A stretch of 10,739 nucleotides of DNA from a virus (taxonomy: Duplodnaviria; Heunggongvirae; Uroviricota; Caudoviricetes): the IMG/VR virus record IMGVR_UViG_2703719365_000002. One strand, 5' to 3'. Position numbers: made by a program. Below are positions 6,001 through 10,739 of the stretch, piece after piece. Each line of letters starts with the position of its first letter. Positions within the stretch are counted from its first letter, which is position 1.

Positions 6001-9000
6001 CGTGTCGTTGTCTCCGAAGTAAAACGGCTTGGCCTGATGCACAAACGCCCTGACATACGCTCTGAAACCGTCCACGTTTGGCGTTTTCAGTTGCGGGATA
6101 ATTTTCTTCAGGCGGCGTTTTCGTTTCTCGTTGACCGCAACAGCGTGTGGAAGTCTGTCACCGACTTCGGTGTTGTAGGCGTTCAGGAAGGATTCGTAGT
6201 CGATTCGTTCTGCCTTGCGACGTTCAGGTTTAACCTGCCCATCGCCATCCCCGTTAGGGGGTAAGGGGGTATTTGTATTTATTGTCTTTTGTATATTGTC
6301 TTTTGTGTTTAGCTGACTTGGCTTATACCCATTAGCCGACTTGGCTAATGTTTTATTAGCTGTTTTAGCTAATGTTAAGCTGTCCTGGCTAATCCACTGA
6401 GAAACCACCTTGTTCACTCCGATTTTCACGCCATCAGCAATGAGGAATTTACGCTCAATAAGCTGGCGCTTGGCAGCGCAAACATGAGTGTGATGAATAC
6501 CTGTCATGGCTGCTATCTGCGTGTTTGTGAGTCGATCCATCGGCTTATTGAATCCGTATGTCTTGCGCATGATAGCGAGCATCACCTTCAACTGCCGGAC
6601 GGTTAAATCAGCCATCAGCAGACTGTCGGTAATCTCGTTAGCAACGCGCATGAAACCATCTTCGGTATCTGCCACGCGATGCTCCACGACCTCCAGTTGA
6701 GGCCTGTAATCAGCTAACTTAACGACGCCCATGTTTCACTCCTGCTTTGGCTAGTCTGTAAACACCAACAAGGCGCTCTGCGAACGCCCTGTTATTTGCT
6801 GCGGCTACCACTAATCCCTCAGGTGAATCAGGGTGTCGAATCTCTTCTTTTTCCTGGTATTTCTTACGACGTTTTGTCATAATTACTCCTGTGGATTGAT
6901 CCAGTAATTCCCTCAGAATTGCATATCAATTTGCTTAAAATCCTCGGTGGCAGCCGGGGATTTTTTCTTTGTGATTTCATCAAGCGCATACTTAAAAGCC
7001 CTGCTAATCGGACTGATGTCTGATGCCATTCCGAAAGCACACAAGACCGAAGCAATAAACCGCCAGTCCGTTCTGCTTATCTTCGATTCATGACAGCCAA
7101 TCATCTTTGCCAGACCGCGCTGTGTAAGCGTTGACAGGTTGATGAGTAAATCTGTTTCTGCGCGATCAACGTCGCGCTGTGATAGTTTGCTGTAACTTGT
7201 TCGTTCCATTTCTTAAGATTTCCAATAGTGAATAGTTAGTTGAAAGGTATGCGTGGAAACGCATATGGCCTTAGTTGGTCAGATATCTTGGGACTCGCTT
7301 TTCAGCGACGTAGGACGAATGTCCGTTGTTACAAAGAGCGGCTCCGCTTATTAAGCGGCTTTGTGCTCCGGCGGGAACACGTCATCAAGACTTACTTTTG
7401 CGCCTAACTTGTTTAGACACGCAACAAGAGCACGGCATGTTTTAAGGTCTGGGAAGCGACGACCAGATTCCCAATGTCCGATAGCTCCCTGTGTGCATCC
7501 AACTGCCTTAGCAAGTGTTGTTTGAGAGATATTCAGTGACTCTCGATATTTTCGTAGGTTGCTCATATGCCCTCCATAGTAACCACGAATAAAAAATACA
7601 ATATGTACTTCTCAAATACAAGTAAAAATACACATTGTGCATGGATGGTTCCAGTACAGAGCGTAATAATAAGGACATGAAAATGAAATGGTATGAACTG
7701 GCTAGATCCAGAATGAAAGAGCTCGGCATAACTCAAGAGAAGTTAGCCGAAGAGCTAGGTATGACGCAGGGTGGAATTGGACACTGGTTGCGCGGATCTC
7801 GTCATCCATCTCTTAGTGATATTGGTGTGGTGTTTAAATACCTTGGTATTGATAACATATCATTCAACCACGACGGGACATTTTCACCTGTTGGCGAATA
7901 CTCATCGGCCCCAGTTAAAAAACAATATGAGTACCCTGTTTTTTCTCATGTTCAGGCTGGGATGTTCTCTCCAGAACTCAGAACCTTTACCAAAGGTGAT
8001 GCGGAGAGATTGGTAAGCACAACCAAAAAAGCCAGTGACTCTGCATTCTGGCTTGAGGTTGAAGGTAACTCAATGACCGCACCAACAGGTTCCAAACCTA
8101 GTTTTCCTGACGGGATGTTAATTCTGGTTGACCCTGAGCAAGCTGTTGAGCCCGGCGATTTCTGCATAGCCAGACTTGGTGGTGATGAATTTACCTTCAA
8201 GAAACTGATCAGGGATAGCGGTCAGGTGTTTCTACAACCACTAAACCCGCAATATCCAATGATCCCATGCAATGAGAGTTGTTCCGTTGTGGGGAAAGTT
8301 ATCGCCAGCCAATGGCCTGAAGAGACGTTTGGGTAAAGAGGATAGATGGAGTTTAATGGCCATGAGTATCAAGCGGTCAAAAAGAAGTTCATCTATTCAT
8401 TGAAAGCATAAGGCCATCTGAGTATATCCGTAATGATCTGGATATTGTCTATAACATCAATGACCGGACGATAGATATCGGTGAGCAGCGTCCTGTATGG
8501 CAGGGTGAGGCAGGTGAAAAAACGTCCTGCCATCAACAAGAATCAAGTGCATCCGCTCTCTGGACAGATGGAAAATTTATTGGATGCAAAAAGATATGAA
8601 ATAACACCTGTATAGCACGGAGCTTTCTCTGACCGATGCACTTGAAGTTGTTAGGGCTGACCCAGCCTGCTGTTTCTTTAGGTAAGAGAAAAGAGATTTA
8701 GGAGATGAAAGGTCGCAGAGGTGCGGCCTTTTTTATTGAGAGTGGATCTTGAACGGAAATTCTCAAGACTTGAGTCTTGCATGCAAATCAATTCCTGGAT
8801 AAACTCGATCTGAGTCAATAACTTAGAGAGAGAGCAAATGGCAAAGTCAAACGTTAGCGTGCAGGCATTCAAGGACTTCCTTGAAGAGCTTATGTCGCTG
8901 AACATAATGAAGGAGGCCACCGCTCGAAATTTAAAAAACTCATCCGCTCGCCTCTTAACGGTAGTCCAAGAAGAGGAAATGGGTGATGTTACTCAGCTTG

Positions 9001-10739
9001 ATGTGAATGAGCTTGCCGAGCGATACATCAACGCAACTGAGCCGAAGCCTAGCGACAGCAGCATTACTGCATATAAAAGCCGCATGGAAAGTGCAATCAA
9101 AAAGTTTGTAGCTTTCCAGTCTGGTGAAGAAATCCCATACACTCCGATTGACAAAGAATCCAGTGAGGAAAAAGATTTGACTGGCGAACCAACAAAAGTC
9201 GAAGGCAAGGCTAATGCACTTCATACCTATGATCTTCCAGTAGTTCTTCGACCTGAATCAGGGGTTACAGTAACGATTAAAGGCATTCCTAACGATATCA
9301 CAAACGAAGAAGCCGAACGCATCTCTTCAATTCTGAAGGTTTACGTTCGGCCTCAATAATGCAAAAGCATTCAGCACAATGTCCAACTCCCCAGTCCGAC
9401 ATTGATGCTGTTTAACCAGAGCCTCCAAAAGGAGCCCTTGTTAAGGTACACAATATTTGCGATGTAACCTTAGCGCGTCTGGTACATTTTTTCAAGCGGT
9501 TGTAGGGCTGCCGCCAATATGAGAAAACACAGATGTCTACATACAATTTGAATGACCAATTCGATCGAGAAGTTCATGTGAATGCCTATGAACGGATAAG
9601 GCATGGAAATCTTGAACATGTGTGTGAGCATTATCGCTCAAGGCCACACCGCTAATCATCAACCCGGCCTCCATGCCGGGTTTTCTTTTCCTCTCGCCCA
9701 AAAAAACACATAACCAATTGTATTTATTGGAAAATAAATAGATACAACTCACTAAACAACGCAATTCTGATCTCTCCTTACATCGCCGAGGCAATACACC
9801 CACGCTAAAAAACAATACTATTAAATACAAAGCGTTGTAAAAAAACGCCCCGTTTTAGAACAAATTGTATTGACCAATTGAAGTACATATCGTACTATTT
9901 AACCATCAGCAGGACGCTGGAAGCCAAATGGAACAGACTGGCAGGCTCTTTAAACAACGTCGACTCTCGACTACGTGGCTGAAAAGCCAGATCACCCAAC
10001 CACATAAGCTGTGGGATGCAATGCCGAAGCAACCGTCTCAGGAGGAGCTTCGAGATTGCATCGCCAAAGTTTATTCGGGAGGAATCTATGTCCAGAAAAA
10101 CAGAATTTAAAGGCACCGCAGCTTCTCGCCGTAGAGCTCGTCGCGCAAACCTGCAAAGTCAGGAGGCGATTAGCTCCGACAAACTACACAGGCCAACCCC
10201 ATCACGAGTGGTCTTACAATGCAAACGCAAACCAGCAATGAGAGCAGAAGTAATAACACTGACAACGTTGACCAGAAAATATGAAGGCTCAACTTGTCTT
10301 CCAAATGTAGCTCTTTACGCGGCAGGCTACCGTAAATCCAAACAACTGACAGCAAGATGACTTGTGTTGGTCGCCAGAAAATGAAATTAGGCAGCAAACC
10401 ACTTATTTGAGGTGATATATGGAATTTCATGAAAGTGCGATTTGTGATTTTCGCGCTAACGCAAATTCAGTAAAACCACAGCCAATTGCAGTTCTTTTTA
10501 AAACAATGGGTGCGTGGGCTGTTTTATGCTTCGCCGCTGACGACACTGACGCAAGAATGGCAATAGGACAAGAGATGGAGATGGACCCGACAAACGATGA
10601 ATTCATAATTTATGGCGCTCCATCTAATTACTTACTTGATACCTGCAACATTTACAACAAGGCTGCCTGATGGTGGCCTTTATTTTTGGCATAAACAACA
10701 GAATAAACACAGCACTGTGTATTCATTCCAACGAGTGAA

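Follow-up and report, generated by a model that had tools for sequence, protein, structure and literature searches.

A mobile prophage cassette between cI and pL of Stx2-type phages with a predicted antisense RNA between its large gene and its miniprotein gene

We analysed a stretch of 10,739 nucleotides (nt) from a virus of the Caudoviricetes (IMG/VR record IMGVR_UViG_2703719365_000002; the whole stretch is called the window and all positions follow its numbering), which is the immunity region of Shiga toxin (Stx) phages of the VT2-Sakai/Sp5 type. The 1.56 kb from the repressor gene to pL match VT2-Sakai (Sp5), Stx2 II, phage 1717 and phage 2851 at 99.9%, and likewise YYZ-2008 and the Stx2a phages of the PA series. 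P, O, cII and cro lie on the minus strand, and the plus strand carries in this order cI (ending at 8336), an accessory cassette, OL/pL, nutL and N. Our sequence comparisons define this cassette as a three-gene unit without a characterised member, composed of a gene for a putative regulator of 173 amino acids (aa), a predicted antisense RNA gene on the opposite strand and a gene for a 40-aa miniprotein (Table 1), and indicate that it is mobile and widespread in temperate phages. The cassette and its two protein genes are almost certainly real. We propose, at about even odds, that it is an autoregulated accessory operon (moron) expressed in the lysogen, with the antisense RNA as the gate on miniprotein synthesis, following a toxin-antitoxin (TA) or abortive-infection logic.

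Salmonella phage vB_SosS_Oslo shares window positions 8710-9662 at 86%, the homology beginning exactly at the stem of the upstream terminator and stopping at the downstream terminator, while neither of the Oslo flanks, a repressor gene upstream and a fumD-like gene downstream, is related to window sequence. Since the segment recurs behind an unrelated repressor gene, the cassette moves as a unit. In prophages of Proteus, Serratia, Yersinia and Cronobacter a homologue of the 173-aa gene occupies the interval from an S24 repressor gene to N, and on one metagenomic contig, which is cut just 5' of the homologous gene, it stands upstream of N. More distant elements carry it in an oppositely oriented island amid replication, recombination or methylase genes, some have it after the repressor of a primase-carrying element, and in loci L012, L014 and L015 the cassette is situated far from any repressor gene. 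Among complete E. coli genomes it is found in 234 of 5,426, with identity always at least 99% and always under the name 'hypothetical protein'; a scan of genome contigs returned one locus only. The cassette qualifies as a moron, with its own promoter and terminator, presence or absence across otherwise related or unrelated phages and expression from the prophage.

An earlier note on this DNA, made from the sequence alone, had described an accessory cassette with transcription of its own, placed where lambda has rexAB. The Oslo boundaries, the conserved promoter, the placement between the repressor gene and N and a published Hfq-binding peak, promoter and peak being treated below, support this description, and the reference to the rexAB slot is literally correct, since window 9661-9776 is 87.5% identical to lambda 35708-35826, which spans the rexB 3' end and what follows it. 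This non-coding rexB-end stretch is all that is shared: PADLOC, Pfam and PHROG gave no match to RexA or to RexB, a multi-pass membrane protein, in line with the note's view of the cassette protein as unlike both. The two open reading frames (ORFs) listed in the note as cassette content stand, but the note had missed the opposite-strand promoter and small-RNA gene in 9360-9532 and a remnant of a DUF3024 gene at 8345-8620. H0093 (8838-9359), H0092 (9533-9655) and a rho-independent terminator at 9661-9689 had already been annotated by the depositors of AP000422.

The evidence for the RNA gene comes from the non-coding 173-nt gap 9360-9532, which is better conserved versus Oslo than the coding sequence. 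A spacer of 147-175 nt, the small ORF and an intrinsic terminator come after the large gene in every one of 34 non-redundant loci, and a structured spacer of 140-175 nt, small ORF and terminator follow the large gene in all 40 family loci examined. All 34 spacers, representing 29 distinct sequences, contain TTGnnn-17-TAnnnT on the minus strand, the spacing always being 17 and the -35 starting 35-46 nt 5' of the small-ORF ATG, against a background of 0.28 per kb. On the plus strand this motif occurs in none of the 34, and a conserved plus-strand promoter for the small ORF within the spacer was rejected on this count. The minus-strand promoter is also present in six of six loci from marine and other metagenomes, the large proteins of which are only ~25% identical to that of the window, and in two loci linked to XRE/ImmA-type genes, amounting to 42 of 42 loci overall. 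It persists across spacer types that are otherwise unalignable, with the three inner -10 positions varying freely. At the other end of the predicted transcript, hairpin H1 has no good plus-strand U tract, and since UUUUGCAUUAUU follows it on the minus strand only, we interpret H1 as the predicted terminator of the antisense RNA. A hairpin-anchored count across 32 loci found the sequence after hairpin 1 to be richer in T on the minus than on the plus strand in 31 of them (mean 4.3 versus 2.0 T in 8 nt), and in L010, L015 and L048 hairpin 1 is a canonical minus-strand terminator. Based on the conserved minus-strand promoter and the strand-specific terminator we predict an antisense RNA of ~100 nt (dG -43.3, z -6.0) with complementarity to the plus-strand mRNA between its two cistrons, and judge from these sequence features that its gene very probably exists.

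Searches of the spacer and the antisense RNA against Rfam 15 on both strands returned no family, and in seven related loci every match stayed below the gathering score. A GadY-like match at 9564-9693 (+), which takes in the terminator as well as the 3' part of the 40-aa ORF, scored 20.1 bits versus a gathering score of 45 (E 0.99) and was judged a chance match driven by the terminator. The known prophage small RNAs (sRNAs) do not apply either, the Pas sRNAs lying in the late region and svsR inside the cI gene of another phage. The tip of H1 (9378-9403; GTCCAACTCCCCAGTCCGAC) is exactly or near-exactly reverse-complemented (GTCGGACTGGGGAGTTGGAC) in Oslo (L003), L044, L071 and L076, as expected from template switching at a quasi-palindrome, which suggests that the stem and not the loop sequence matters.

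The spacer is also structured as part of the mRNA. Helix P2 of the spacer type found in the window covaries, with CTGTAAC/GTTACAG and AGCTGC/GCAGTT in relatives. In a second, commoner spacer type the equivalent of P2 is 99% paired, four of its seven pairs are changed on both sides, and seven G.U cells are pairable on the plus strand only. The four-helix model of this commoner type is 87.5% paired versus 35-46% with the partners slid, 18 of its pairs are changed on both sides, and none of 500 shuffles reached its covariation score. The 5' arm of P2 falls within the stretch complementary to the antisense RNA and the 3' arm outside of it, in the spacer of the antisense promoter, and therefore pairing of the antisense RNA would open P2. 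Just 5' of the Shine-Dalgarno sequence all spacer types carry a hairpin, the sequences of which differ (GCGG/CCGC, GTGGC/GTCAC, GCGAC/GTCGC, CCTCAGG/CCTGAGG and others).

For expression in lysogens we could make use of published crosslinking and analysis of cDNA (CRAC) data. Tree et al. 2014 (Table S2; PMC4104026) list EcOnc20 as a Hfq-CRAC peak on the minus strand of the Sakai chromosome at 1,255,628-1,255,753, within Sp5, and its uncharacterised status was retained in a listing of 2021. Using AsxR as an anchor (chromosome 1,268,494-1,268,542, equivalent to NC_000902 22,476-22,526) together with the window-to-phage mapping, and assuming that phage record and chromosome are colinear over 13 kb, EcOnc20 is placed on the window plus strand at ~9500-9625 (+/-3), an interval that runs from the leader hairpin through the Shine-Dalgarno sequence to codon 31 of the 40-aa ORF. 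With EcOnc20 located on the small-ORF leader, plus-strand RNA of the cassette is made in the lysogen and bound by Hfq.

The 40-aa ORF, which the earlier note had merely listed, is a gene under purifying selection: its family shows a ratio of non-synonymous to synonymous changes (pN/pS) of 0.23 at a pS of 0.70, and the changes versus Oslo are mostly synonymous, including AGG to CGA. Three interchangeable miniprotein families occupy this position, i.e. phrog_21154, a family with the motif PPGYRW...ERxLDAHxYG (phrog_33859) and a CxxC...CxC zinc-ribbon family, with pN/pS values of 0.23, 0.20 and 0.27, respectively, at near-saturated synonymous divergence. They are exchanged among closely related large genes, as exemplified by L036 and Oslo, both with 77%-identical large proteins and with differing miniproteins. 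Neither the 40-aa product nor the two alternative families contain a hydrophobic segment.

The 173-aa protein belongs, as judged by sequence profiles, to a sizeable unannotated family: an exhaustive profile search yielded 659 representatives of 50%-identity clusters, 247 of these at E <= 1e-10, and among the 150 representatives listed all have 110-238 aa and nearly all 157-208 aa with the profile matched end to end, two of them falling outside the latter size range. The broad family alignment is too divergent to derive search patterns. Purifying selection acts on both domains (pN/pS of 0.26 in the N and 0.28 in the C domain, compared to 0.65 in the linker). AlphaFold2, run with a 27-sequence alignment, predicts helices at residues 8-21, 26-40, 56-66 and 73-95 with a predicted local distance difference test (pLDDT) score of ~90 and disorder for residues 103-127; the C-terminal domain modelled alone reached a pLDDT of 85.7. 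The two-part build anticipated by the note, with a helical N-terminal half, a linker and a beta-rich tail, is thereby reproduced. In the predicted structure, residues 1-100 adopt the four-helix core-binding (CB, SAM-like) fold of tyrosine recombinases, so that the note's statement that the protein cannot be placed in any family no longer applies to the N-terminal half. It still holds for the C domain, a beta-hairpin plus helix with the motif PxxxRPxxGxxVxIxGxPxDxTxxEAERI that matches nothing known. A catalytic domain (RKHRH-Y, ~170-200 residues) is missing, the CB fold being followed only by the 27-residue linker and the 46-residue beta-hairpin/helix, and the protein is for this reason not a recombinase. 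Profile searches assigned neither the 173-aa nor the 40-aa product to a characterised family: no Pfam model above threshold, no NCBIfam and no PADLOC model matched, and both PHROG families are labelled 'unknown function'. Sequence searches of the PDB with the single 173-aa protein and with a 63-member profile gave no meaningful match, and a Foldseek comparison of the whole model with BFVD yielded no information, since global alignment is upset by the disordered linker. The acidic character assigned to the protein is correct here (isoelectric point, pI, 4.85) and specific to this clade, as the family has a median pI of 8.7 and its linkers are usually basic, strongly so in most members (median pI 10.1). 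We considered that an acidic 173-aa protein serves as antitoxin for a basic miniprotein and rejected this as a family feature on account of the median pI.

A CB-like domain without a catalytic domain acts as a sequence-specific repressor in FliZ (PMC3367168), although the CB region of E. coli FliZ (183 aa) is C-terminal, unlike that of the 173-aa protein; SPbeta MrpR and phi3T SroF keep the whole recombinase-like body, whereas the 173-aa protein combines a CB domain with a novel beta-hairpin/helix. No sequence similarity to FliZ was found, no search having been aimed at it. What the cassette shows of a FliZ-type repressor is the fold and the operator-like repeats at P1. The main reason for reading the 173-aa protein as the operon's regulator is provided by two sister cassettes. 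In Klebsiella phage ST846-OXA48phi9.2 (L092) and Escherichia phage Phi06_2987 (L091) the unit of hairpin 1, spacer, antisense promoter, miniprotein gene and terminator is also present, placed after an XRE-family gene and a HExxH ImmA/IrrE-type gene that replace the CB protein, and both carry the minus-strand TTGnnn-17-TAnnnT (2/2) 36-44 nt 5' of the ATG. Because it is also found behind XRE and ImmA/IrrE genes, the antisense-promoter/leader/miniprotein unit can be regarded as the constant part, and the upstream genes look like exchangeable regulator or sensor modules. Since they appear exchangeable, we read the 173-aa protein as a regulator; that it is the DNA-binding regulator of the operon is about as probable as the opposite. 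The Xre-COG2856 cassettes of these two phages and the window cassette have the same unit ending in the terminator and differ in their upstream modules, which are unrelated in sequence, the window having the CB/beta-hairpin-helix protein. An RNA and a miniprotein may thus have been overlooked as output of many Xre-COG2856 cassettes.

Both terminators claimed at the cassette edges (8711-8736 and 9661-9689) are backed by folding, with a dG of -15.9 upstream and -14.3 downstream and a z of -3.5 each. Oslo retains the upstream terminator's stem with a different loop, the same element is present in the Proteus, Serratia, Yersinia and Cronobacter loci, and it is the predicted end for transcripts coming from cI and the DUF3024 remnant. 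Downstream, AACCCGGC...GCCGGGTTTT or a close variant is found 3' of the small ORF in nearly all loci. Promoter P1 is too weak to be scored by a simple consensus promoter scan, yet comparison substantiates the TTGCAT-17-TAAACT promoter proposed at 8777-8805, as TTGnnn-17/18-TAnnnT occurs 55-66 nt 5' of the start codon in 27 of 31 distinct relatives. The palindrome TTGCATGCAA (8777-8786) thought to guard it is perfect in the window but not kept in Oslo. An operator-like inverted repeat that is conserved, CAAGAC (8764-8769)/GTCTTG (8774-8779), overlaps the -35 hexamer, and the -35 repeats of relatives are clade-specific, being AAGACT-N1-4-AGTCTT in near relatives and of the CGATCGAT type in others. 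One GATC site lies within the P1 region (8807-8810) and a second just upstream of it (8745-8748), and in 31 related loci the GATC density amounts to 18.5 per kb in P1-type promoters versus 2.9 per kb in the same loci (6.4-fold); Dam-methylation-dependent expression of the cassette is possible. One clade has GATC inside the -35 itself (TTGATC), and GGATCC is found in the spacer of many antisense promoters.

Table 1. Positions of the cassette elements and of pL in the window
Feature	Position	Strand	Details
Left-edge intrinsic terminator	8707-8738	+	stem 8707-8732, G+C core 8711-8728, then U6AUU
Promoter P1	8762-8810	+	-35 TTGCAT (8777-8782), -10 TAAACT (8800-8805), 17-nt spacing
173-aa protein H0093, phrog_2602	8838-9359	+	CB fold 1-100, variable linker 101-127, C domain 128-173
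Predicted antisense small RNA	9352-9460	-	~100 nt, from ~9460 to ~9355, terminator hairpin 9410-9366; ends predicted
Hairpin H1	9366-9410		directly 3' of the 173-aa stop codon; followed by UUUUGCAUUAUU on the minus strand only
Long-range helix P2	9415-9483	+	ACCAGA (9415-9420) pairs with TCTGGT (9478-9483)
Antisense RNA promoter (predicted)	9467-9495	-	-35 TTGAAA (9495-9490), 17-nt spacer, -10 TAAGGT (9472-9467)
Small-ORF leader	9496-9532	+	hairpin GCGG (9496-9499)/CCGC (9511-9514), weak Shine-Dalgarno GAG (9521-9523)
40-aa His/Cys-rich protein H0092, phrog_21154	9533-9655	+	MSTYNLNDQFDREVHVNAYERIRHGNLEHVCEHYRSRPHR; pI 7.0
Right-edge intrinsic terminator	9661-9692	+	stem 9661-9682, then U-rich tail
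pL	9870-9898	+	TTGACC-17-TACTAT

These data are consistent with a model in which P1 would give rise to a bicistronic mRNA, with read-through of H1 as this hairpin has no plus-strand U tract. The 173-aa protein would bind the inverted repeat over the -35 and set the level of the operon, perhaps modulated by Dam methylation, a role corresponding to the apparent one of the XRE/ImmA pair in the sister cassettes. The antisense RNA would pair with the spacer over ~100 nt and open P2, and the two cistrons would be uncoupled and the miniprotein kept low, either because the duplex is cleaved or because a ribosome standby structure is lost. If synthesis of the antisense RNA falls, e.g. when an infecting phage shuts off transcription or the element is lost, the miniprotein would be made and act as effector. 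We consider it rather likely that the antisense RNA controls the miniprotein; a purpose in defence or addiction can be suggested only tentatively. The gap between cI and N is known to harbour abortive-infection genes of prophages, RexAB and BstA among them (PMC8585504). A still bolder generalisation, according to which the cassette stands for a widespread and so far undescribed class of three-component phage modules, in which an exchangeable sensor or regulator (integrase-CB-derived or XRE/ImmA) and a cis-antisense RNA gate an exchangeable zinc-type miniprotein effector and cause abortive infection or addiction upon loss of the labile RNA, seems at present somewhat unlikely.

Several observations weigh against this model. 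The half-site spacing of the inverted repeat at P1 varies from 1 to 4 bp among relatives and is therefore unusual for a rigid dimeric repressor, and the proposed DNA-binding regulator is acidic in this clade. The miniproteins are soluble and basic or His/Cys-rich, unlike hydrophobic type I toxins, their toxicity is putative, and neither the 173-aa nor the 40-aa product matched a family in PADLOC-DB 2.0 at E <= 1. The Hfq-CRAC table of 2014 lists only the plus-strand peak here and no minus-strand one. Finally, the predicted antisense RNA does not cover the ribosome-binding site of the small ORF, because of which the mode of control is a guess.

The missing minus-strand peak fits with the possibility that there is no antisense RNA and that the spacer is a structured mRNA element for processing, stability or coupling, the minus-strand hexamers being a by-product of a conserved AnnnTAGCGG...CAA. 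The strong support for a plus-strand structure, the G.U pairs of P2 that can form on the plus strand only and the position of the antisense -10 inside conserved plus-strand motifs all suit this explanation. It does not account for hexamers that occur in 42 of 42 loci across unalignable spacers at a spacing of exactly 17 with a free inner -10, nor for the minus-strand U tract after hairpin 1 in 31 of 32 loci and the textbook terminators of L010, L015 and L048, and we rate it as improbable. A somewhat better, though still low, probability is assigned to a role in lysogenic conversion through transcription, with the 173-aa protein as a FliZ-like regulator of host genes and the miniprotein and antisense RNA as accessories, or the RNA as a trans-acting sRNA with host targets. 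That FliZ works as a global repressor and has a CB domain, that linkers are strongly basic in most family members and that the plus-strand RNA is bound by Hfq, as other regulatory RNAs of Stx phages are, speak for it, but the constant element of the cassette is the antisense-promoter/leader/miniprotein unit and the CB protein is replaceable by XRE/ImmA, and the range of hosts from enterics to marine bacteria argues against a single host regulon as target.

The cassette might also be a secondary immunity or antirepressor circuit as known from P22 immI or P1 immI, the miniprotein being a small antirepressor or lysis-lysogeny regulator that the first gene product and the antisense RNA restrain in lysogeny; the cassette would then tune induction of its own or of co-resident prophages instead of defending the cell. 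In P22 immI (Pant-arc-(sar RNA)-ant) the gene of an autoregulator comes first, followed by an antisense RNA from the intercistronic region and then the controlled gene, a layout like that of the cassette. The cassette moreover adjoins the repressor gene in lambdoid members, and the sister cassettes use XRE and ImmA/IrrE, a classic pair of repressor and antirepressor protease. However, an 86%-identical cassette serves unrelated repressors, although co-variation with the repressor is to be expected of a specific antirepressor. The cassette is also found far from repressor genes (L012, L014, L015), and its terminator-bounded form is moron-like; this explanation is unlikely to the same degree as host regulation. 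That the cassette is a decaying, non-functional remnant with untranslated ORFs might be read from the neighbouring DUF3024 pseudogene (8345-8620) and from database names that are all 'hypothetical protein'. Purifying selection on both ORFs at near-saturated synonymous divergence, an architecture kept down to ~25% protein identity, the identical cassette in 234 complete E. coli genomes and the presence of a Hfq-bound RNA already contradict it, leaving hardly any probability for decay.

Comparison with known systems suggests, by analogy, that the cassette is kin to the antisense-RNA-gated small-protein modules on prophages, with a geometry that is closest to tisB/IstR-1, zorO/OrzO, P22 arc-sar-ant and lambda OOP/cII. 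Type I TA systems (tisB/IstR-1, zorO/OrzO, shoB/OhsC, hok/sok), in which the sRNA pairs upstream of the ribosome-binding site, resemble it in the small ORF, the long structured leader, the constitutive-looking sigma-70 promoter on the opposite strand, the predicted ~100-nt RNA complementary to the leader and sparing the ribosome-binding site, the Hfq-bound mRNA and the location on prophages. They differ in that the cassette miniproteins are not hydrophobic membrane peptides but soluble, basic or His/Cys-rich and zinc-ribbon-like, the small ORF is apparently a second cistron behind a regulator gene, and the complementarity extends over ~100 nt as in a true cis-antisense RNA. With P22 immI (Pant-arc-ant, sar) and lambda OOP/cII the cassette has in common a short antisense RNA, predicted in the cassette, from a promoter in or next to the intercistronic region that ends at a hairpin by the 3' end of the upstream gene, and a first product that is a small regulator of the DNA-binding type, putatively so in the cassette. 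However, the ribosome-binding site of ant is covered by sar, and OOP reaches into the cII coding end, whereas the predicted cassette RNA is confined to the spacer; Arc, Ant and CII are related to the cassette products neither in sequence nor in fold, and the product controlled in the cassette has only 40-57 aa. RexAB, BstA of BTP1 and Stk of 933W occupy the same slot between repressor gene and N and are likewise expressed in the lysogen; the cassette is co-oriented with cI and its right terminator is homologous to the rexB-end sequence. In contrast to these systems, to which it has no similarity in sequence or architecture, the cassette has its own promoter behind a terminator and does not ride on the repressor transcript.

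Although the Stx2 prophage of E. coli O157:H7 Sakai is a much-studied virulence phage, the parts of this cassette in its immunity region have so far been annotated as hypothetical or not at all. The analysis explains the orphan Hfq-bound RNA EcOnc20 at the gene level as the leader and 5' part of a 40-codon gene, predicts a new antisense RNA and defines a protein family of ~659 sequence clusters with a fixed architecture, ranging from enteric prophages to marine metagenomes. If the miniprotein proves to be an effector that is freed once the antisense RNA is degraded, the cassette would represent a new kind of prophage module for defence or addiction, situated in the slot of RexAB and BstA, and superinfection, prophage stability and possibly Stx-phage induction could be affected.

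Some further observations concern the neighbourhood of the cassette. The stretch separating cI from the cassette holds the decayed DUF3024 gene (8345-8620, +). When an intact Proteus homologue of 113 aa (L004:4422-4760; Pfam DUF3024, E 2.9e-27) served as tblastn query, the alignment was split over two frames and contained an internal stop (E 3e-7), and the listed ORFs 8272-8403 and 8481-8615 are fragments of this remnant. In L006, L008 and L036 an extra miniature unit that is not present in the window is located ~60-110 nt 5' of P1 and downstream of the upstream terminator, consisting of TTGACG-17-TATACA and, almost immediately after it, the terminator AACCCTC-TGAT-GAGGGTTTTTTT; it could represent a very short transcript or a remnant. 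The Stx1 and Stx2 II phage records list the minus-strand ORFs B57, B56 and B55 at 8678-8920, 8955-9224 and 9537-9830, which probably are over-annotations since they overlap selected plus-strand genes and a terminator and have no homologue support. Deposited annotations of the identical sequence differ in their start codons, cI (7635-8336) starting at TTG 7635, ATG 7641 or 7683 and N (10016-10360) at ATG 10016 or 10088. Just 3' of N, an 83-aa ORF (10419-10670, +; H0090, phrog_2471 of unknown function, no Pfam match) is followed by a terminator-like hairpin at 10659-10680 and constitutes another uncharacterised early-left gene.

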